DNA of 64,000 nt from Escherichia phage LQ5. The stretch is from sequence record OR677401. One strand, given 5' to 3'. The notes beneath the pieces are model-generated. The model did not search any database. It was not told the DNA's origin and worked only from the letters and a program-made list of their open reading frames with translations. Position 1 is the stretch's first letter; every line of letters starts with the position of its first letter. Both the position numbers and the translations under genes were made by a program. This document shows positions 8,491 to 41,726 of the stretch, piece after piece.

Positions 8491-8674
8491 CCCTAAAAAT
8501 AAAGCGGAAATTATTCGACACTGGACTGAAACACGAGTAACTAAATGCCCTATAAAAAGTCAACACAACACCGATAAATGGTATATTGGTGAATATGTTG
8601 AGTATACTTTTATAGATAAAAATAAACGTAAACAGCATGTAGAAGAATATTGCTTAAAGGTGCAATGGTTATGA
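8462..8674 (+). CDS. hypothetical protein
   Basis: ORF 70 aa overlapping macro gene end. Confidence 0.45.
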   Translation: MKAHYPHPFDPKNKAEIIRHWTETRVTKCPIKSQHNTDKWYIGEYVEYTFIDKNKRKQHVEEYCLKVQWL

Positions 8675-8844
8675 GTCTGAGTAAAGAACAGAAAGATAAA
8701 TTGTTTGAGCTTATCCATGAGCTTATGGAACTCAACATAGAATGTGAATTTGATAACTCTCTGGATTGGGATTGGAGAGGTGGTGAAGAGGATGAGTTTT
8801 CTAAAAAGGAAAATGAATTAATTGCTTATGTAAATAGTCTTTAA
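8671..8844 (+). CDS. hypothetical acidic protein
   Basis: ATGA overlap; 57 aa. Confidence 0.5.
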   Translation: MSLSKEQKDKLFELIHELMELNIECEFDNSLDWDWRGGEEDEFSKKENELIAYVNSL

Positions 8845-8853
8845 GAAGGTAAT

Positions 8854-9426
8854 ATGGCTCAACTTTATTTTCATTATGCGGCGATGAATTCCGGGAAAAC
8901 CGCTTCATTGCTAACGGCAGCTCATAACTACAAAGAACGTGGTATGGGCGTACTCCTTTTAAAGCCTGCGATAGACAATAGAGAATCAAGCCATAGCATT
9001 TCGTCTCGTATAGGGATTAGTCAAGAGGCTAATGCCGTGACTCCGGATATGGACCTATACGAGTTCTATCGTTGGGCTGAATCTCAAAAAGATATCCACT
9101 GCGTATTTGTGGATGAAGCACAGTTCTTAGAACCTGCACAGATAAAACAACTGGCAAAGATAGTAGACAATTATAATGTTCCGGTTATGTGCTATGGGCT
9201 AAGAACTGATTTTCAGGGTAAACTGTTTCCTGGCTCTGCTGAATTACTCGCTACGGCAGATAAACTCGTTGAGTACAAAGGTGTGTGCCATTGTGGCCGT
9301 AAAGCTACTATGACTGCTAGGGTCCAGGATGGTATCGCAATTAAGGACGGCGCCCAAGTTTCTATAGGTGGCAACGATTCTTACGTGTCATTGTGCAGGA
9401 AGCACTGGATAGAAATAACGAGTTGA
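8854..9426 (+). CDS. tk: thymidine kinase
   Basis: AAMNSGKTASLL P-loop and CHCGRKA zinc motif; collinear with T4 Tk. Confidence 0.95.
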   Translation: MAQLYFHYAAMNSGKTASLLTAAHNYKERGMGVLLLKPAIDNRESSHSISSRIGISQEANAVTPDMDLYEFYRWAESQKDIHCVFVDEAQFLEPAQIKQLAKIVDNYNVPVMCYGLRTDFQGKLFPGSAELLATADKLVEYKGVCHCGRKATMTARVQDGIAIKDGAQVSIGGNDSYVSLCRKHWIEITS

Positions 9427-9433
9427 GGGTATT

Positions 9434-9712
9434 ATGGACCTAAATTCAAAGATTTTAATTCTAGCGTTCGCTGTGGCTATTTCTTATATTGTTCTTTCGC
9501 CTATCATGGATGATGTGGCTTACAAAAGAGAGATAGAGGTTGTAGCAGCGACGTATAATGCTAATAATAAAGAATGTCCTAATAAAAATGGGATGGATTT
9601 AATTAAAGCGCATTATATGCTTTCCATTACCTCGCCTATACAGAGGAATTGGGTTGAATATAATTTTAACGACGTGTTCTATTCTTATTGTCGTAAGCTT
9701 AAAAAGCTATAA
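9434..9712 (+). CDS. hypothetical membrane protein
   Basis: N-terminal hydrophobic helix ILILAFAVAISYIVLSPI. Confidence 0.6.
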   Translation: MDLNSKILILAFAVAISYIVLSPIMDDVAYKREIEVVAATYNANNKECPNKNGMDLIKAHYMLSITSPIQRNWVEYNFNDVFYSYCRKLKKL

Positions 9713-9715
9713 ATA
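9708..9715 (+). promoter_or_regulatory. possible late promoter TATAAATA
   Basis: exact TATAAATA about 90 nt upstream of the rI-like gene. Confidence 0.35.
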
Positions 9716-9804
9716 ATAATACTAACCGTAGAGCTTTAGCTTTTGGTAATCGCTATCGGTTAAGGCCGAAAGGCAAATAGTATAAAACAACAAAGGACTT
9801 TTGT

Positions 9805-10098
9805 ATGGGTATTTTCCGTACAGCGGCTTGTATCCTTATGGCGGGATGTTTAAGCCCTACAGTTTCACTAGCAAATGGTGCCAATGATAAATTGATGGAT
9901 GCATTTGCTAGTAGTGCGATGCCTGTTTATGCGCAAATGAGTAGACCCAGCGTAAAGGCCTCCGAAGACTATTGGGCCTATGTTACGGCTTCCTGGAAGA
10001 TTTCAAGTTGTCGGACTATAGAAGCGTGTTCAATTGAAGGTCGGGCCATCGGAGAGCGTTATGTAAAACTAATGAAGGTGGAAGATGAAGTTCAATGA
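9805..10098 (+). CDS. rI: lysis-inhibition regulator RI-like (signal-anchored periplasmic protein)
   Basis: 97 aa, N-terminal signal; C-terminal CSIEGRAIGERYVKLMKVE resembles T4 RI as recalled; position next to tk. Confidence 0.5.
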   Translation: MGIFRTAACILMAGCLSPTVSLANGANDKLMDAFASSAMPVYAQMSRPSVKASEDYWAYVTASWKISSCRTIEACSIEGRAIGERYVKLMKVEDEVQ

Positions 10099-10468
10099 TT
10101 TCGTACCCAGTCGAGGGTCTGAAGTGGATTCTTATATTGGTTGGCTACTGGTTTCTTTAGCCTATTTTAAGTCAGCCCATTTAGAAACCAAAAGCTATGC
10201 AAGACACAAAGCGTATGACTTCTATTATGTAGAAGTTCAAGGACCGCTGGACCAATTTAGTGAGCAATATCTTGGATTCAGTGGCAAAGAATATAAAGCA
10301 TCATTACCGTCTGCTTCAGACTTGCCTAAGGACCCGGTAGATTTTCTTGACGAGCTTCTTAAAGCATCTGATAAAATCTATGATACCCTTCCTAAGGCCA
10401 TCCAGTCGACTTTGGACGATATCACTGGCGTCTTTTACCAGACTAAGTATTTGCTGACGTTAGAATAA
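10085..10468 (+). CDS. hypothetical protein
   Basis: ORF 127 aa followed by terminator. Confidence 0.6.
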   Translation: MKFNDFVPSRGSEVDSYIGWLLVSLAYFKSAHLETKSYARHKAYDFYYVEVQGPLDQFSEQYLGFSGKEYKASLPSASDLPKDPVDFLDELLKASDKIYDTLPKAIQSTLDDITGVFYQTKYLLTLE

Positions 10469-10472
10469 TCAA

Positions 10473-10500
10473 AGGTCTCACTTCGGTGGGACCTTTTTTC
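10473..10500 (+). terminator. rho-independent terminator
   Basis: stem ggtctcac/gtgggacc (one G-U), loop ttcg, T-tract. Confidence 0.75.
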
Positions 10501-10508
10501 GTTTAGGT

Positions 10509-10537
10509 GTTTACATCCTCTAGGAACATGATACTAT
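10509..10537 (+). promoter_or_regulatory. T4-type early promoter
   Basis: GTTTAC ... GATACTATA GACCTATCAA. Confidence 0.65.
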
Positions 10538-10565
10538 AGACCTATCAACTAATGAGGAGAACAGT

Positions 10566-10802
10566 ATGAAACTTACAAGTACTACGGTTTCATTAGAATA
10601 TGAAATCAACGGTCGTATCCTTGAGATTAAGATATTCGACGACCGAAGTATCTTCGCTGATTATCGAGGATACAGAATTCGTCTAGAAAAGGACGAGCTC
10701 AAGGAACCGTGGCTCCTTAAAGACACATTAAAGGGTTGTGGATGTAAACTGAAGACTACCCAAGCCCAAGAATTAATTTCTACTATCAACAAATACTGGT
10801 GA
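10566..10802 (+). CDS. hypothetical protein
   Basis: GAGGAGAA before ATG. Confidence 0.6.
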   Translation: MKLTSTTVSLEYEINGRILEIKIFDDRSIFADYRGYRIRLEKDELKEPWLLKDTLKGCGCKLKTTQAQELISTINKYW

Positions 10803-10806
10803 TATT

Positions 10807-10989
10807 ATGTTAACTACTGAACAGATTGAACAAATCCTTAAACTGGCTACTGCTATTGAACGTGATTCTTATGATAGTGCAGTAGAACATTGCGAAGGCT
10901 ATTCATATTCCGCAATAGAGCAGTGTAAACGAGATTTGGATAACTCTAAAGCGGCATTGGTTGAGTATCTTAATGAGTTGAAAGCGTAA
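10807..10989 (+). CDS. hypothetical protein
   Basis: ORF 60 aa. Confidence 0.5.
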   Translation: MLTTEQIEQILKLATAIERDSYDSAVEHCEGYSYSAIEQCKRDLDNSKAALVEYLNELKA

Positions 10990-11110
10990 TGGCTGATGGC
11001 ACAGGAGCCTGAAGATGATTTACTATCTTGAACCTTGGGCTTGGTCAACAATGATTATAGGCCCTATTTTAATCGGTTTATTCTTTTCATGGTTAGTGAG
11101 GAAATTGTAA

Positions 11111-11308
11111 ATGTTATACGATCCAAATGGTTGTTCTGAAGATGGTGTGATTGCCCTTTTAGCAGATGTTGAAGAATCTGACGATGACGTCTTTGTTAAA
11201 GATTGGGAAGAAAAAGGTGGAATTACGCTCCAACAAGAAAATGATATGATTTGTCTGAATGCAGACCAAGTCGAAGAGCTTTATAGTATTTTAAAACATA
11301 ACCGTTGA
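11111..11308 (+). CDS. hypothetical acidic protein
   Basis: GAGG before ATG. Confidence 0.5.
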   Translation: MLYDPNGCSEDGVIALLADVEESDDDVFVKDWEEKGGITLQQENDMICLNADQVEELYSILKHNR

Positions 11309-11318
11309 GGAATAGAAA

Positions 11319-11879
11319 ATGATTATTGAAACAACTGAATTGTTTGGCGAACTGTCCGCTGAAGTAGTTAATAACGCAATTGAGCTTTCACAAGAAGACG
11401 ATAAAATCGTACTGACTATCGCTGATATTAAACCGCTTTATGATTTAATGGTTTTAGATAGACACGATTATCTTAACGGTCGGGCTAGTGCTCCTATCGA
11501 TATCAATGATGATATGTTTGCCTATATCTATAAAAATGAAACCGGGTTTAATCTGGAAAATGGTATTGAATGTCTGAGCATCAGCGATTCTGATAAATTC
11601 TTTGATTGTATTTTCAAACTGTTCCAGGAAGAATGCAAGCCGGAAGTTGAATGGAAAGTCCCTGGCCAAGATGCCGTGATTCGTTCTAGTGAAACCTTTG
11701 AAGGTGATGAAGAAGAACTGAATTATGATACTGAATTAACCGTGTATCAACATCAGGGCCGTGATTTGTTATCCTTGACCCAAAGACACGATGGTGAAAG
11801 TGAAGTGGTATTTACTAAAGACGAACTAAAAGTTTTAGTCTCTTATCTGAACTCTGTTATCCCAACTATGAACTCTTAA
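11319..11879 (+). CDS. hypothetical acidic protein
   Basis: ORF 186 aa. Confidence 0.65.
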   Translation: MIIETTELFGELSAEVVNNAIELSQEDDKIVLTIADIKPLYDLMVLDRHDYLNGRASAPIDINDDMFAYIYKNETGFNLENGIECLSISDSDKFFDCIFKLFQEECKPEVEWKVPGQDAVIRSSETFEGDEEELNYDTELTVYQHQGRDLLSLTQRHDGESEVVFTKDELKVLVSYLNSVIPTMNS

Positions 11880-20333: not shown

Positions 20334-21407
20334 ATGCAAGATTTCGGGCATTGGGCGGTATTTGAAGAAGTTGATATTAAAAATTATATTGGATTTGTGT
20401 ATGTAATCACTTTTGAAGATGGCAAAAAATATGTCGGTGCTAAAAAGATTTGGAAACGAATCAAAGCTGCACCTTGCACATTTAAACGTGGTCCTAAAAA
20501 AGGGTTTGAGGAATCTGATTGGAAAACCTATACCTCATCATCCAATGAATTGAACGCAATGATAGAAAAGGGTATAAGTCCAAAAGAATATCTTATTGTA
20601 GGATGGTACCCTACTTGGGGTAAAACTCTTATGGCAGAAATGGAAATGCAATTAGCCAATGATGTTTTACGAGACCCTATGTGGCTCAATAAACAAATTG
20701 GCGGGCATTTCAACCCTAACTGCTTTGACGATTTAACAGAGGATGATATTGCAAGATGGATGGAATTTGATAAAGGGAATGAGCATGTTTCTTGGCCTAT
20801 GATGTATAAAATTGGCCAGAAAACCAAGTACGTTAAACCTGATGAAGTTAGTGAGTATATTAAATCTGGATGGCAATTTGGTCGTTCTAAAATGGAAAAA
20901 CATTCTGTTACCTATAATTGCTCTAAATTTACTATATGGGACTATGAAGAAAACAAGCCGGTGGAAGTAATAAATCAAAACGAATTCGCTCGTAATAATG
21001 ATTTAAGTAGCAACCATTTAACAAGGCTTCTTCAAGGAACCCTCGACCTAATTAAAGACCGATGGGGCCTTCCACCAGATATTGCTCGTCAGCGTTATAA
21101 ATTTCAGGACGTTTCTTCAGGAACAAAATTTTTATCCAATTCCGAGTTAGAAGAATTTTACGGTATGACTCGCGGTCAGGCTAACAAAGCTATTAAAGAT
21201 GGAAGAGCTGTTAAATTAGTAGTCGAAAGCAAAGAAGACCATATTAAAAAACTTGGCTCTATCGAATTGGTAAAAACCGAAAAGACAAAAGTTACGTCTC
21301 AAGTAATGCTTAACAGTTTTAAAGATATAGTTAATCCTATGACTACTGCCGAAAAATCAGAAATGATTGAATGGTTGGAAAGTTATATAACTTATTTGAA
21401 ATCTTAA
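20334..21407 (+). CDS. GIY-YIG-like homing endonuclease (seg-type)
   Basis: N-terminal YIGFVYVITFEDGKKYVGAKK fits the GIY...YIG pattern; AT-rich gene. Confidence 0.5.
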   Translation: MQDFGHWAVFEEVDIKNYIGFVYVITFEDGKKYVGAKKIWKRIKAAPCTFKRGPKKGFEESDWKTYTSSSNELNAMIEKGISPKEYLIVGWYPTWGKTLMAEMEMQLANDVLRDPMWLNKQIGGHFNPNCFDDLTEDDIARWMEFDKGNEHVSWPMMYKIGQKTKYVKPDEVSEYIKSGWQFGRSKMEKHSVTYNCSKFTIWDYEENKPVEVINQNEFARNNDLSSNHLTRLLQGTLDLIKDRWGLPPDIARQRYKFQDVSSGTKFLSNSELEEFYGMTRGQANKAIKDGRAVKLVVESKEDHIKKLGSIELVKTEKTKVTSQVMLNSFKDIVNPMTTAEKSEMIEWLESYITYLKS

Positions 21408-37014: not shown

Positions 37015-37515
37015 ATGAAAAAGTTAATTATCGCAATGAGTATGCTCCTATCAGGTTGTGCGGTCCAATATGGTGATGCAGTTTCGGCTGATGAAGTTGG
37101 TAAAGCTCGTATCGCAGCTGAACAGAAACAATTCGATGGCGAAATGAAATTCCGTGCAGGTTCTGGACTTGTGTACACCCGAGCCAATAATCAATGTGGT
37201 AATAACTGTGCAAAATATGCTCAAAGGGAAATCGAATTCCAACGTGAACAAGAGTCTAAGCGTGAAGCGGTACTAGCCAAACACCAGGCAGAAATGAAGC
37301 GTCAAGATGATTTGTACAAAAAGCAGAAACTGTATGCGATGTGCGTAAACCATATCAATCTACAGATTTCCATCCACGAGGCTCGTTATTACGAAATGCT
37401 CGAAACCGAGAGCTTCGGTAAAGCTCGTGATTATAAGAAACAAATCGATAAGCTCAAGACCAAAGCACCGGCGGCAATAAAACAGTGTATTGAAATCGGT
37501 AAAGATAAGATTTAA
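37015..37515 (+). CDS. lipoprotein
   Basis: lipobox-like LLSGC after signal MKKLIIAMSM. Confidence 0.6.
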   Translation: MKKLIIAMSMLLSGCAVQYGDAVSADEVGKARIAAEQKQFDGEMKFRAGSGLVYTRANNQCGNNCAKYAQREIEFQREQESKREAVLAKHQAEMKRQDDLYKKQKLYAMCVNHINLQISIHEARYYEMLETESFGKARDYKKQIDKLKTKAPAAIKQCIEIGKDKI

Positions 37516-37575
37516 GCAATACCAATTTATTAAAAATAGTGTATAATGTACCTACATTCACTTGAGGAACAGATA

Positions 37576-39249
37576 ATGAAAAAGGTTGTTATTTTAGGCG
37601 CGGGTCTTGGCTCACGGTTGTATCCAATTACCAACGAAATCCCGAAGGTACTGGTTAACTACAAACAACATACTGTATTAAAACATTTGTATGATTTGTA
37701 TAGTAATCAATCAGATGAAATTATTCTGGTTATTCACAGCAAATTTAACGACCTCGTTAAAGGCTATATTAAATCCATTAACATGATTAATAGTGATAAG
37801 CCCAAATTCACTATTCGTAACGTTGATGTTGCCAATGGTTCGGCTCATGCTATCGATTGCATTGCCGAAGATATCATTGGGCACAATGTCTTGTTTAACT
37901 GGTGTGATATTATTCCTGAAGGTCATAAAGTTGAGTGGGATAACGACTACTGTTATACCTATGGGACTGACTGTCGTTTTACATTTGAAGAACCGTACTT
38001 GCGTGAAATTGGTACCGGTGGTGGTGTGGTTGGTTTGTATCAGGTTGCTAATTGGACAGGCTTCAACCGTTCTAATTATGGCGAAGACCTTGCTGATAAC
38101 CTGGATTCGATGGTCCATTTGACCGAACGTAAGCTGGACTTTGTAGTTGATGTCGGTGACAAATTGAAACTGGCTAAGGCCCATGAAGATTCTGAAATTA
38201 ACCGTGAATTTAATAAATTAGAGTTCACTGAGAATCTAGCTATTAAAGTACCTACAAACGAATTAGGTAAAGAAATCCAATCTAAAGAAATCAATTGGTA
38301 CAATTCTATTGATTCTGAATTCGTTCCTAGCATTGTAGACTTTGCTCCAGGTGAATTCATTAAAATGGAACGTATCTTTGGTCGAACCATGGCAGATGCC
38401 TACCGGTTTATGTCTAAAGAAACTAAAGTCCTAATGGTTTATAAGGTTATTAGTGCATTACGTTCGTTCGGTGGAACTATCGATAATCCGTCCGATGAGC
38501 AATGGTATTCTGATGTTAAGAAAGAAGTATTGGACAAGGTCCTTATTCGTAATGCTTCTATTGCCGGATTGATTGAAGGCTTTGCTCCACAGGGTATTAC
38601 CCATGTTAACGACTTCAAGGTAGGCGACCCAGAAAAACTTCTTCGTCACGCCTTAGAAATTCTGTCTGAACATAAAGAACCGTACCAACTTATTCATGGC
38701 GACCCGCACTACAGTAATATTATGTTGTCGGACGAAGGTAATATTAAAATCATCGACCCACGTGGTTATTTTGGTAATAGTTCTAAAGGCCCTGCGATTT
38801 ATGATGAAGCTAAGGTGCTTTATTCTATCGATGGTTATGACAAATTTAACTCTGACCCTCTATGGGGCGGATTAACTCGTAACGGAACTCGTGTATTCGT
38901 TGATATTGAAAAGGTTATGCCTTTAGATGATATTCCGATGTGTACATTTAAGCACAAGCTCTGGATTGCCGTTATTTGGATGGCATTGGCAGGTTACTTT
39001 AAAAATAACCCTCTGAAAGCTCTGGGCGCTTATTACAATGGGCTATATCAACTGAGTGTGCTGCTGAAGCGGCATCCTCGTAAGCGTAAGCTTATCACAG
39101 GTGAATTCGTTGATGAAGTTCGCGACCCTATCACGGCTCAAATTATCACTCGTTGTCCTGATAAGTGGGTTTTGCTTGACCAAGAAACTGGTGTAAAATA
39201 TAAACCTACAGGTTCTACCGAACTCCACAAACAATGGAAGAAAATTTAA
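37576..39249 (+). CDS. bifunctional nucleotidyltransferase / kinase (predicted sugar-1-phosphate nucleotidyltransferase fused to APH/choline-kinase-like kinase)
   Basis: N-terminus ILGAGLGSRLYPITNEIPKVL matches the NTP-transferase glycine loop; C-terminus LIHGDPHYSNIML ... IIDPRGY matches the HGD..N / D-x-x-G kinase catalytic and metal loops. Confidence 0.65.
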   Translation: MKKVVILGAGLGSRLYPITNEIPKVLVNYKQHTVLKHLYDLYSNQSDEIILVIHSKFNDLVKGYIKSINMINSDKPKFTIRNVDVANGSAHAIDCIAEDIIGHNVLFNWCDIIPEGHKVEWDNDYCYTYGTDCRFTFEEPYLREIGTGGGVVGLYQVANWTGFNRSNYGEDLADNLDSMVHLTERKLDFVVDVGDKLKLAKAHEDSEINREFNKLEFTENLAIKVPTNELGKEIQSKEINWYNSIDSEFVPSIVDFAPGEFIKMERIFGRTMADAYRFMSKETKVLMVYKVISALRSFGGTIDNPSDEQWYSDVKKEVLDKVLIRNASIAGLIEGFAPQGITHVNDFKVGDPEKLLRHALEILSEHKEPYQLIHGDPHYSNIMLSDEGNIKIIDPRGYFGNSSKGPAIYDEAKVLYSIDGYDKFNSDPLWGGLTRNGTRVFVDIEKVMPLDDIPMCTFKHKLWIAVIWMALAGYFKNNPLKALGAYYNGLYQLSVLLKRHPRKRKLITGEFVDEVRDPITAQIITRCPDKWVLLDQETGVKYKPTGSTELHKQWKKI

Positions 39250-39608
39250 TGCATCTGTGTTTTGATATCGATAATACCATTACTCACTGGCAAGATGACC
39301 GTGATTACGAAAACTTTAAACCGGACACCGAAATGGTGTCCATGATTAATAAGCTTTATGATGAAGGGTACGAGATTACCTTGTTCACTGCCCGTGGTAT
39401 GACTTCATGCGGCCCGGGTCGAATCTTGGTTGAAGTAGTTCCTGCATTAGTTAAGAACCTTGAAAAGATTGGATTGAAATATCACAATCTGCTTACACAT
39501 AAGCCGAGTTATACTTTTATCATCGATGACCGAGCAATCCGTCCTGACCACTTTAAAGAAATGGTTCGTGAAGGAACTCTTGAAACCTATAAGGCATATC
39601 ATCCGTGA
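39234..39608 (+). CDS. HAD-superfamily phosphatase
   Basis: motif I CFDIDNTIT (DxDxT), motif IV FIIDD; alternative start at 39249. Confidence 0.6.
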   Translation: MEENLMHLCFDIDNTITHWQDDRDYENFKPDTEMVSMINKLYDEGYEITLFTARGMTSCGPGRILVEVVPALVKNLEKIGLKYHNLLTHKPSYTFIIDDRAIRPDHFKEMVREGTLETYKAYHP

Positions 39609-40141
39609 AACCAAAAATCATTGTTATCGACGGCCCGGATAATTCCGGGAAGTCTACTTTAATTGAATCACTTTTATCTGATAAGAAATATCGTCTTATC
39701 GATTTCCCTAAAAAGATTAACGGCAAATGCATTTCATTAGGGACTGATAATGACAAGGCTTTAGTCGAGACGTTGTATAAGTTTTTAGACCCTAATTTTG
39801 TCTACATCTTAGACCGTGGGTATCCTAGTAATATTGTTTACTCTGGATTCCTTCGTGGTGAAATGGACCCTTATGTAGAATTAGCAGATTGGATTGATTT
39901 CAAAAAAGAATTCAATATCATTGAGATTATTTTAACCCGTAATCCATTAGATGAAGACTTTGAAGATGACCTTATTAAATTAACCAAAGATGAGTTCAAC
40001 CTAACTATCCAGCAATATGAAACATGTTTTGAAAACGTGTTTAAAATCTTAAATCACGACGGCCATAATAACTTGCTTAACGTCGATATGGTAGAATTAA
40101 AACGTCTGAATGAATATATTGAAAATAAGGTGAATAAATGA
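39605..40141 (+). CDS. P-loop (thymidylate-kinase-like) nucleotide kinase
   Basis: IVIDGPDNSGKSTL Walker A; LDRGY resembles the Tmk DRY motif. Confidence 0.6.
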   Translation: MKPKIIVIDGPDNSGKSTLIESLLSDKKYRLIDFPKKINGKCISLGTDNDKALVETLYKFLDPNFVYILDRGYPSNIVYSGFLRGEMDPYVELADWIDFKKEFNIIEIILTRNPLDEDFEDDLIKLTKDEFNLTIQQYETCFENVFKILNHDGHNNLLNVDMVELKRLNEYIENKVNK

Positions 40142-40836
40142 AACACATTACCGCTGTTAGTTTTGAAAACGCGTTTAAGCAAATGAACGAAGAAATCCTG
40201 GAAGCTCCACAGTTTGCAGTTGATTCTCGTATCGGCCGTTGTTATGAAATTGGTTCTGCTTCGGTAGAAGTACTGGATGCAAGCACCTATAAATTCACCG
40301 ACCCTCGTATTAATCGTATCAACTATGATTATGCCGAATCCTTTTGGAAGTTTATGATTTCTGGTGGTACTGACGCTGCTGAAGCATTTAAGGAATATCC
40401 TAATGTTGCTAAGTTCATTGATAAGCCGAAAAGTGACGTATTGCCTGCAAACTTCAACACTTTCTATGGACCTCGAATTGTGGCCCAACTCCCGGCCCTA
40501 CTTAAAGAGCTTAAAGAGAAGCCTAACTCAAGACGAGTTGTGTTCCAAATTCTCCAAGAACAAGACCAGGCCCTCCTTGATTCTGACGAATCCTTAGAAT
40601 ACCCATGTACCGATTCGGTGACATATTATATTCGTGATGGACGTCTGTATGCACATACTCATATGCGTTCACAGAACTGTGCTATCGTTATGCAGCTGGA
40701 TTTCTATCTGCAGGGTAAACTGATGGCCTTTATTGCTGAACAGTGTGGTGTTGGTCTGGGTACGTATTCCCATACTATGGTTAGTGCACACGTATTTGAA
40801 CGTGATTTTGACTACGTTCGAGGATTCCTGAAATGA
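40138..40836 (+). CDS. 42: thymidylate-synthase-family pyrimidine hydroxymethylase (dCMP hydroxymethylase-like, gp42 slot)
   Basis: catalytic EYPCTDS cysteine; MRSQNCAIVMQLD aligns by eye with T4 gp42 MRSNDVVFGFRND, Asp at the TS Asn specificity position. Confidence 0.65.
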   Translation: MKHITAVSFENAFKQMNEEILEAPQFAVDSRIGRCYEIGSASVEVLDASTYKFTDPRINRINYDYAESFWKFMISGGTDAAEAFKEYPNVAKFIDKPKSDVLPANFNTFYGPRIVAQLPALLKELKEKPNSRRVVFQILQEQDQALLDSDESLEYPCTDSVTYYIRDGRLYAHTHMRSQNCAIVMQLDFYLQGKLMAFIAEQCGVGLGTYSHTMVSAHVFERDFDYVRGFLK

Positions 40837-41726
40837 GTTTGTTTATCGTTCCTATTTTCAGTATGCGTAGTTACGAAACAGGTGAATATGCCGTCCTTAA
40901 GGACGGTAATTTTCAACTCCATTTAAACCGTGCTTGCCCAGGTGATTATCTGGCTTATCCTAGAAATTCGAGCGATATCAAAGAATGCATTGAATTATTT
41001 CCTGAACTGAATTTTGTACCGCTTTGGTATAAAGAAAATGCTTATGAAACTCGTAAACATTTTTGGTCTGAAAACGAGTTCGTTGTTGATTCGTTAATCG
41101 AATACTATGACTGCTCAGGATTGGTAACCGATATCACAGGTTATGATGGCACTCAGACTGTACAATTCAACTTTAACATTACAATGGACCCTGAAGTTCC
41201 TCGTTATTATATCGACGAGTTTATTGATACCGACGTGTCCTCAGTTGAACGTTCGATTTATACCACAGTCCTGAATCAATGTCAGAAAGACGTCCTGGTG
41301 TCACGAGGTGCGTCCTCTGATAAGATTTTTGTAGACCAAAAGGTAATTAATCCGGCAGTAATTGAGCGTTACTCTGAAGGCCTAGCGCCTATTAAAATTG
41401 ATGGTATTTTCCACCCATTCCGTATTTCGGATAAGTGTTATCAATTCGAAAGAGTTGTAGACCAAGCTGCGGCTGAAGGTGCTCGTCTTTATATCACCGA
41501 CCCGAATGATTCATTTAAGCGTGAAGACTATCGTCCTGATGTAGAGATTATTAAATTCAAACCGAGTAAGGTTGAATATTATCAGATTCTGAAATCAAGA
41601 CCTCATATCATTTATCATGAGAATCCCGGTTTAGTATTCCATCCTGGTCTGGCTGAATTCATTTATTTCGGTGCCCATATCCATTCTGAGCACGAAATGC
41701 CAAGTTATGAGGACGTGGTCCTTTAA
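40833..41726 (+). CDS. hypothetical protein in the beta-glucosyltransferase slot (candidate DNA sugar transferase)
   Basis: 297-aa ORF ATGA-coupled to hydroxymethylase; no recognisable T4 beta-gt similarity. Confidence 0.35.
   Translation: MSLFIVPIFSMRSYETGEYAVLKDGNFQLHLNRACPGDYLAYPRNSSDIKECIELFPELNFVPLWYKENAYETRKHFWSENEFVVDSLIEYYDCSGLVTDITGYDGTQTVQFNFNITMDPEVPRYYIDEFIDTDVSSVERSIYTTVLNQCQKDVLVSRGASSDKIFVDQKVINPAVIERYSEGLAPIKIDGIFHPFRISDKCYQFERVVDQAAAEGARLYITDPNDSFKREDYRPDVEIIKFKPSKVEYYQILKSRPHIIYHENPGLVFHPGLAEFIYFGAHIHSEHEMPSYEDVVL

Follow-up and report, generated by a model that had tools for sequence, protein, structure and literature searches.

The sequence analysed here is a stretch of 64,000 nucleotides from Escherichia phage LQ5 (sequence record OR677401; hereafter the window), and the gene under study is an ATG-initiated open reading frame (ORF) of 297 codons on its plus strand, for which we propose a role in the arabinosylation of phage DNA. 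The features discussed below are listed in Table 1. On the basis of ORF reading of the window, the ATG of this gene overlaps the TGA of an upstream thymidylate synthase (TS) homologue as ATGA, and a Shine-Dalgarno-like GAGGA lies 8 nucleotides 5' of the start codon. The order of genes in the window is 43-imm-...-TS homologue-target ORF-uvsX-40-41, compared with 43-imm-42-b-gt-segA-uvsX-40-41 in T4. The target is located in the slot of the T4 beta-glucosyltransferase gene (b-gt), between the position of gene 42 and uvsX. A preliminary description of this DNA, which had been made from the sequence alone, reported the ORF, its coupling to the gene upstream and its b-gt position, and our reading agrees with it on all three. 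A scan for promoters and terminators gave a result that was no better than chance. The 5-kb stretch around the target showed 98.6% identity to Escherichia phage QL01 (Dhakavirus) and 96-98% identity to WG01, Bp7 and MX01, all of which are Dhakaviruses.

Table 1. Features of the window discussed in the text, with their coordinates
Feature	Coordinates	Strand	Counterparts and basis
Target GT-B gene, 297 amino acids, putative base-proximal 5-hydroxycytosine arabinosyltransferase	40833..41726	+	Orthologue of RB69 gp46:47, DLP3 gp79 and Thanatos TH1_063
ATGA start/stop overlap with upstream gene	40833..40836	+	Read from sequence; overlap table; translational coupling
GAGGA, Shine-Dalgarno-like	40820..40824
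TS homologue, putative 5-hydroxy-dCMP synthase, 232 amino acids	40138..40836	+	Homology and diagnostic residues; would make the acceptor base
Thymidylate-kinase-like P-loop protein	39605..40141	+	RB69 gp45 and TH1_064 homologue; PHROG 761, E=2.8e-40
HAD-type phosphatase	39234..39608	+	RB69 gp51; HY126 AfhF-like
Putative bifunctional sugar-1-phosphate nucleotidyltransferase (N-terminal) and sugar kinase (C-terminal), 567 amino acids	37546..39249	+	RB69 gp53:52; TH1_060; HY126 AfhE-like
166-amino-acid protein	37015..37515	+	Hypothetical in QL01
Imm-like membrane protein, 78 amino acids	36637..36873	+	RB69 imm, 50% identity
357-amino-acid ORF with SegE-type GIY-YIG homing-endonuclease domain	20334..21407	+

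Family and orthologues of the target protein

The target matched PHROG 3891 (function unknown) with E=2e-158 over residues 1-296. Homologues formed 117 clusters in a search of 5.8 billion proteins, and 356 phage records were found by tblastn to carry one. Thus, the gene is not the orphan that it had been called in the preliminary description. Identities in the tblastn search were 95-99% for Dhakaviruses, ∼67% for Mosigviruses of the RB69 group, 51% for Shewanella phage Thanatos and ∼49% for Acinetobacter T4-like phages, and homologues were also present in Klebsiella, Enterobacter, Yersinia, Serratia and Proteus phages. In nearly all cases, the neighbouring gene bore the annotation thymidylate synthase or dCMP (deoxycytidine monophosphate) hydroxymethylase. 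Conservation ranges over the Straboviridae and, distantly, the Pootjesviridae. When 1.84 billion cluster representatives were searched with a profile, only 236 clusters were recovered, and therefore the family, as judged from these profile matches, is small and largely viral.

The target aligned end to end with two ORFs of RB69, ORF047c (69% identity, residues 1-179) and ORF046c (64% identity, residues 184-297), and it shared 51% identity and the same gene position with TH1_063 of Thanatos. Lee et al. (NAR 2026, PMC13326640) regard the two RB69 ORFs as a single gene that was divided through an error in sequencing, and they name it gp46:47. In the same work, gp46:47, DLP3 gp79 and TH1_063 were assigned as 'arabinosyltransferase 1' in a 5-hydroxycytosine arabinosylation cluster, and Dhakaviruses were named among the genera with a syntenic cluster (PMC13326640). 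Since Lee et al. list the Dhakaviruses, the identity of the target gene is effectively published already: it is a new member of the RB69/DLP3/Thanatos gene family described in 2025-2026, and its sequence, synteny, companion genes and fold all agree with this membership. It should be noted that the gene is intact in the window, whereas it is still split into ORF046c and ORF047c in the RefSeq record of RB69 (NC_004928.1, 6598-7498); the kinase/nucleotidyltransferase gene of the same record (10095-11781) is still split into ORF052c and ORF053c. The intact genes of the window align over both junctions, which speaks for sequencing errors as the cause of the two splits.

Predicted fold and glycosyltransferase assignment

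An alignment of 83 family sequences contained 12 invariant and ∼40 near-invariant positions spread across both halves of the protein. The AlphaFold2 model of the target had a mean predicted local distance difference test score (pLDDT) of 95.9 and a predicted template modelling score (pTM) of 0.91. This confidence, together with the 117 homologue clusters and the 356 phage records, establishes the ORF as a real gene and not a chance ORF. Beta and alpha elements alternate in two halves of the model, which form two Rossmann-like beta/alpha/beta domains separated by an interdomain cleft, as in the GT-B fold of glycosyltransferases (GTs). Foldseek comparisons with both PDB structures and viral models agreed with a GT-B fold, and the BFVD model of the KARL-1 homologue matched the target with a template modelling (TM) score of 0.95. 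The family-invariant residues R197, K246 and H270 and the conserved E275 are located in the C-terminal domain; R74, D200 and D223 are invariant as well.

We compared the target with retaining GT-B enzymes of CAZy family GT4, including sucrose-phosphate synthase (6kih), BshA (6n1x), PglA (8dqd), PimA (2gej), MshA (3c4q) and WaaG (8b5s). Identity was only 7-12%, and the target is 60-100 residues shorter; its proposed acceptor is a modified nucleobase, whereas GT4 enzymes act on a sugar, lipid or small molecule. No GT family of Pfam, Glycos_transf_1 and Glyco_trans_4 included, matched the target at E≤0.1. When the 83 relatives were examined against Pfam at E≤1, the sole match to a family named for glycosyltransferases was PF01762 (Galactosyl_T) in one member, with a chance-level E of 0.11. 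NCBIfam gave no match for the target, and neither did a profile search of PDB sequences. The assignment therefore rests on the predicted fold, because no sequence model sees the target family. From the model, the target is probably a compact GT-B, GT4-like glycosyltransferase with a probably retaining mechanism. Fold prediction had been suggested in the preliminary description as a way to examine the gene, and the predicted structure favours a glycosyltransferase.

Known phage DNA glycosyltransferases used for comparison were the beta-glucosyltransferase (GT63) and alpha-glucosyltransferase (GT72) of T4 and the chain-extending arabinosyltransferases ('Aat'). No similarity to T4 beta-glucosyltransferase could be detected by BLASTP (E=6.1), and tblastn of the T4 gene against the window found nothing meaningful, just as the first reading of the sequence had recognized nothing resembling that enzyme. 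The possibility of a diverged beta-glucosyltransferase was rejected. The target falls outside the T4 family, with which it shares its gene position but neither sequence nor a gp42-type supply of 5-hydroxymethylcytosine (hmC). RB69 gp3, the HY126 glycosyltransferase (PDB 9iqz, 9ir0) and DLP3 gp76-gp77 belong to a different family that has no sequence relationship with the target. These Aat enzymes put the second and third sugars on DNA that is already arabinosylated, and they are dispensable. The structure 9iqz proved to be an orthologue of RB69 gp3 (E=5e-249), and therefore the solved phage glycosyltransferase is a chain-extending enzyme and not a representative of the target family.

The acceptor base

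The gene coupled to the target encodes a TS homologue with 79% identity to RB69 gp48 and 71% to Thanatos TH1_062, in contrast to 25% identity over 159 residues with T4 gp42. Its nearest structures were 9iqu, 9iqc and 9ir2 (E∼1e-125; 1.5e-125 for 9iqu/9iqc), which were deposited in one series with the HY126 glycosyltransferase, whereas the T4 dCMP hydroxymethylase 1b49 was matched with E=4.7e-6. Conversion of dCMP to 5-hydroxy-dCMP, for which O2 and a flavin are used, was shown for RB69 gp48, DLP3 gp80, the enzyme of Thanatos and others, and an Asn replacing Asp169 of ThyA has been proposed as diagnostic of such synthases (PMC13326640). In the alignment, the TS homologue reads M-R-S-Q-N at this site, a motif common to the RB69, Thanatos and jumbo-phage homologues, whereas T4 gp42 reads M-R-S-N-D. 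The corresponding residues in window numbering are N180 (D169N), D188 (N177D) and the catalytic C157; the Cys and the dCMP-specifying Asp are kept in all aligned sequences. The D169N signature and the 79% identity to RB69 gp48 indicate that the base made by the phage, and thus the acceptor, is very probably 5-hydroxycytosine (5hoC) and not hmC. The identification of the neighbour as a dCMP hydroxymethylase, as it had been called in the preliminary description, was rejected for these reasons, and the in vitro assay on hmC-DNA that was suggested there would use the wrong acceptor. In public records, the target is a 'hypothetical protein' and the neighbour a 'thymidylate synthase' or 'dCMP hydroxymethylase', and both labels mislead.

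The shared b-gt position could also suggest that the target is a non-orthologous replacement of the T4 enzyme that glycosylates hmC in DNA, all the more as the RB69 modification was first described as arabinosyl-hmC (PMC6024577). A later correction replaced this assignment by arabinosyl-5hoC, in which the sugar is joined directly through an ether link. Considering in addition that the neighbour carries the signature of a 5-hydroxy-dCMP synthase and is 79% identical to an enzyme shown to make 5-hydroxydeoxycytidine, and that the cluster showed no further gp42-like gene, we regard transfer to hmC as extremely improbable.

A minimal block of putative arabinosylation genes

The target is the last gene of a five-gene block with the order kinase/nucleotidyltransferase, HAD phosphatase, thymidylate kinase-like (Tmk-like) protein, 5-hydroxy-dCMP synthase and GT, in which successive genes overlap by 16, 4, 4 and 4 nucleotides. 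The 567-amino-acid protein showed Pfam matches to NTP_transferase (2.5e-8) and APH (9.1e-6), matched PHROG 4098 with E=5.8e-269, and shared 44% identity with TH1_060 and 41-44% with RB69 gp52/53. In phage HY126, AfhE, a uridine diphosphate (UDP)-arabinose pyrophosphorylase, and AfhF together convert arabinose-5-phosphate to UDP-arabinofuranose, according to the summary given in PMC13326640. By homology, the 567-amino-acid protein would make UDP-arabinofuranose, and the HAD protein (62% identity to RB69 gp51; PDB 9iqw, E=2.8e-53) would be an arabinofuranose-1,5-bisphosphate 5-phosphatase. The Tmk-like protein shared 38% identity with RB69 gp45 and 44% with TH1_064. The QL01 counterpart of the first gene, gp045, has 557 amino acids, and the mechanically called ORF begins 10 codons earlier (37546..37575). 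Its real start is probably position 37576 (Met11), because none of the alignments with homologues extends N-terminal to residue 11, where all of them start.

Compared with the RB69 cluster, the block is cut to five overlapping genes: no homologue of gp55 (arabinose-5-phosphate isomerase), gp50 (U32 family), gp49 or gp3 could be found in the window by tblastn, and only ∼800 bases separate rIIA.1 from gene 39, the interval in which RB69 carries gp3. In addition, the position of the Tmk-like gene differs: it precedes the synthase gene in the window but follows the GT gene in the RB69/DLP3/Thanatos cluster. Apart from the target, neither a family member nor any other GT-like gene was detected in the window. 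For the genome as a whole, the state with a single GT and no isomerase was derived from the annotation tables of QL01 and from Pfam scans of its unassigned large proteins: the annotation of the complete QL01 genome lists neither an isomerase nor a GT, and its unassigned proteins of GT-B size were DUF or AAA proteins or had T4 counterparts, none of them GT-like. Thus, a minimal, rearranged, single-GT version of the cluster is what is specific to this phage. The arabinose-5-phosphate would presumably be supplied by the host enzymes KdsD/GutQ. In characterized phages, the number of GTs matches that of sugars, with one GT in Thanatos (mono form), a mono form in LC53, two GTs in RB69, Bas46 and NP (mono and di forms) and three in DLP3 (tri form). 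Since GT count tracks the sugars in these phages and no second GT was found, we predict mono-arabinosyl-5hoC in the DNA of the phage by analogy.

Proposed function and its alternatives

Taken together, it appears fairly probable that the target is a compact GT-B glycosyltransferase that links the first D-arabinofuranose, the base-proximal one, to the 5-hydroxyl group of 5hoC in phage DNA. In this scheme, the coupled TS homologue would convert dCMP to 5-hydroxy-dCMP, which the phage deoxynucleoside monophosphate (dNMP) kinase and host kinases would carry on to 5-hydroxy-dCTP for use in place of C in replication. The 567-amino-acid enzyme and the HAD phosphatase would turn host arabinose-5-phosphate into UDP-arabinofuranose (UDP-Araf), from which the target product would move arabinose to 5hoC. 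Freshly replicated DNA is the most likely site of this step, on the model of the T4 glucosyltransferases. The expected product is the ether-linked 5-O-(alpha-D-arabinofuranosyl)-cytosine. The base-proximal linkage has been reported as alpha (PMC13326640), which would fit the retaining mechanism suggested by the GT4-like fold. The literature on orthologues is our source for the synthase activity, for the chemistry of arabinosyl-5hoC and for the reactions of AfhE and AfhF; for the target itself we infer the transfer reaction, its donor, the anomeric outcome and DNA as acceptor. The preliminary description had singled out the gene as the prime candidate for a DNA glycosyl, possibly arabinosyl, transferase. 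This part gains support from the GT-B fold, the orthology with the RB69 and DLP3 genes and the position of the target as sole GT-like gene, whereas hmC as the acceptor has to be given up.

Several observations weigh against this proposal. No chemical analysis of Dhakavirus DNA and no in vitro transfer of a first sugar by any family member was found in the literature surveyed, the coverage of which was incomplete. The DLP3 GTs were singly inactive on 5hoC-DNA with UDP-Araf or UDP-arabinopyranose (UDP-Arap), and the authors could not tell whether a mononucleotide or DNA is the acceptor of the first arabinosylation (PMC13326640). No GT sequence model detects the target or its 83 relatives. The target is acidic (isoelectric point (pI) 4.83, net charge -19), as is the family (median pI 5.2), in comparison with a pI of 9.05 for T4 beta-glucosyltransferase. 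Finally, purified TH1_063, with 51% identity to the target, formed UDP-xylose from UTP and xylose-1-phosphate and glycosylated neither DNA nor dCMP or dCTP (PMC12838424).

The last result raises the question of whether the target might be a UDP-pentose pyrophosphorylase that activates a sugar-1-phosphate. We consider this very unlikely. The acceptors used in the negative transfer assays of TH1_063 all lacked a 5-hydroxyl (PMC12838424). The predicted fold is that of GT-B and not of a nucleotidyltransferase, no NTP_transferase signature was found in the target with Pfam or NCBIfam, and the NTP_transferase domain of the block sits in the 567-amino-acid protein, the counterpart of HY126 AfhE. Moreover, single-GT phages such as Thanatos and the window phage would be left without a sugar-transfer enzyme. 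Even slighter, in our view, is the chance that the target is another enzyme of GT-B fold (UDP-sugar 2-epimerase-like or hydrolysing), or a non-catalytic partner, that remodels the nucleotide sugar. It is suggested by the Foldseek ranking, in which many UDP-GlcNAc 2-epimerases (E∼2e-6), themselves GT-B-like, stood among the top PDB matches. The best published PDB match of the Rhizobium-phage counterpart is likewise an epimerase (PMC13326640), and Serratia phage PS2 has a degenerate member of the family.

A more serious question concerns the acceptor, and here the Tmk-like partner is of importance. Its gene is adjacent to the GT family in the window, RB69, Thanatos and the jumbo-phage contig JAWVHC010000046.1, and it is weakly recognizable in Rhizobium phage Y68. 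The order TS(D169N)-GT-Tmk-like is kept in the jumbo phage and in the family of Rhizobium phage Y68, in which 5hoC is decorated with galactose (PMC13326640). In seven distant clusters, the GT module continues at its C-terminus into a Tmk-like domain (hhalign 89.5%, E=2e-6). The phage dNMP kinase already phosphorylates 5-hydroxy-dCMP (PMC13326640), so that a second kinase-like protein needs explanation. It would be explained if the same sugar transfer took place before replication on free 5-hydroxy-dCMP or its di- or triphosphate, with the Tmk-like protein phosphorylating an arabinosylated dNMP too bulky for the general dNMP kinase and the polymerase incorporating the product. The constant company of the Tmk-like protein wherever examined, the acidity of the family and the inactivity of single DLP3 GTs on 5hoC-DNA would all agree with this sequence of events, which, if true, would mean a pre-replicative sugar hypermodification against the T-even paradigm.

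However, fusion or adjacency can mean a shared pathway without a shared substrate, and charge is a weak argument, as RB69 gp3, which is of the same GT class as the DNA-acting DLP3 gp76 and gp77, is itself mildly acidic (pI 6.3). To our knowledge, all characterized T-even sugar transfers are post-replicative. Expression of the synthase and the dNMP kinase alone puts 5hoC into DNA, and the later arabinose additions by DLP3 gp76 and gp77 occur on DNA (PMC13326640). The former finding makes unglycosylated 5-hydroxy-dCTP a competent polymerase substrate and fits a post-replicative sugar step. Based on the analogy with T4 and on the later additions, DNA seems the more likely acceptor, and transfer to the free nucleotide, although it deserves attention, is on the whole unlikely.

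The acceptor, DNA or nucleotide, and the role of the Tmk-like partner are the part of this system worth pursuing. The block is the smallest complete version seen, with five overlapping genes, one GT and no isomerase, and is therefore well suited to reconstituting first-sugar transfer and to settling which acceptor is used. The phage group concerned is Dhakavirus (JS98, Bp7, IME08, QL01 and relatives). Cytosines that bear sugars protect phages of the T-even type from restriction enzymes, from DNA glycosylases and from several CRISPR systems, and the modification carried by a therapeutic or model coliphage predicts its host-defence profile.

Distant relatives and other observations

The C-terminal extensions described above occur in clusters P0207, P0214, P0220, P0228, P0239, P0245 and P0246. 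Ten other distant clusters (P0131, P0144, P0147, P0151, P0166, P0171, P0183, P0192, P0213 and P0215) carry an N-terminal, HAD-like extension of ∼140-190 amino acids, with HAD-phosphatase-like motifs (DFDG...GDS...GDD) in P0131, P0144 and P0147. This partner was called HAD from motifs and a weak Pfam match, and its membership of the same subfamily as the HAD protein of the window is not demonstrable. Neither phmmer nor hmmsearch linked the fusion-partner domains to the HAD or Tmk-like protein of the window; only hhalign linked the C-terminal partner.

The 383-kb jumbo contig JAWVHC010000046.1 encodes, at 6426-9576, a flavodoxin-like protein, a 107-amino-acid protein, a TS homologue (M-R-S-Q-N), the GT and the Tmk-like protein. 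Reduced flavin for the hydroxylase could come from the product of the flavodoxin-like gene. Serratia phage PS2 (NC_024121.1, 5001-5927) has a 308-amino-acid homologue of the target (hhalign 99.2%, E=1.5e-19) between an hmC-type gp42 (M-R-S-N-D) and canonical beta-alpha-gt plus beta-gt genes (neighbours at 4217-4954 and 5977-7925). The invariant residues of the C-terminal domain (PFR..D, TDPN, K246, HPG) are lost in this protein, and it is probably what remains, in degenerate form, of an ancestral GT at the locus.

The most distant member from a word-indexed search was P0117 (Logan SRR22071707_3375, 7496-11220). It is flanked by small P-loop, U32-family and GT47-like proteins, and no TS homologue was present within 8 kb. 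U32 proteins include the RNA C5-hydroxylases RlhA and TrhP, and RB69 gp50 is also of the U32 family. Since RlhA and TrhP are C5-hydroxylases, the 5-hydroxy base may alternatively be made by a U32 enzyme.

Two further genes of the window lie between the DNA polymerase gene and the five-gene block. One encodes the small Imm-like membrane protein, and the other encodes a protein with the N-terminus MKKLIIAMSMLLSGC, which resembles a lipoprotein signal by eye; the latter had no significant family match (one sub-threshold Pfam match, E=0.006). At the position of the 357-amino-acid ORF with the GIY-YIG domain, QL01 has only small genes, and the offset between window and QL01 coordinates changes by ∼1082 nucleotides between window positions 1295 and 40833. 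Both observations are consistent with the insertion of a homing-endonuclease gene in this phage.

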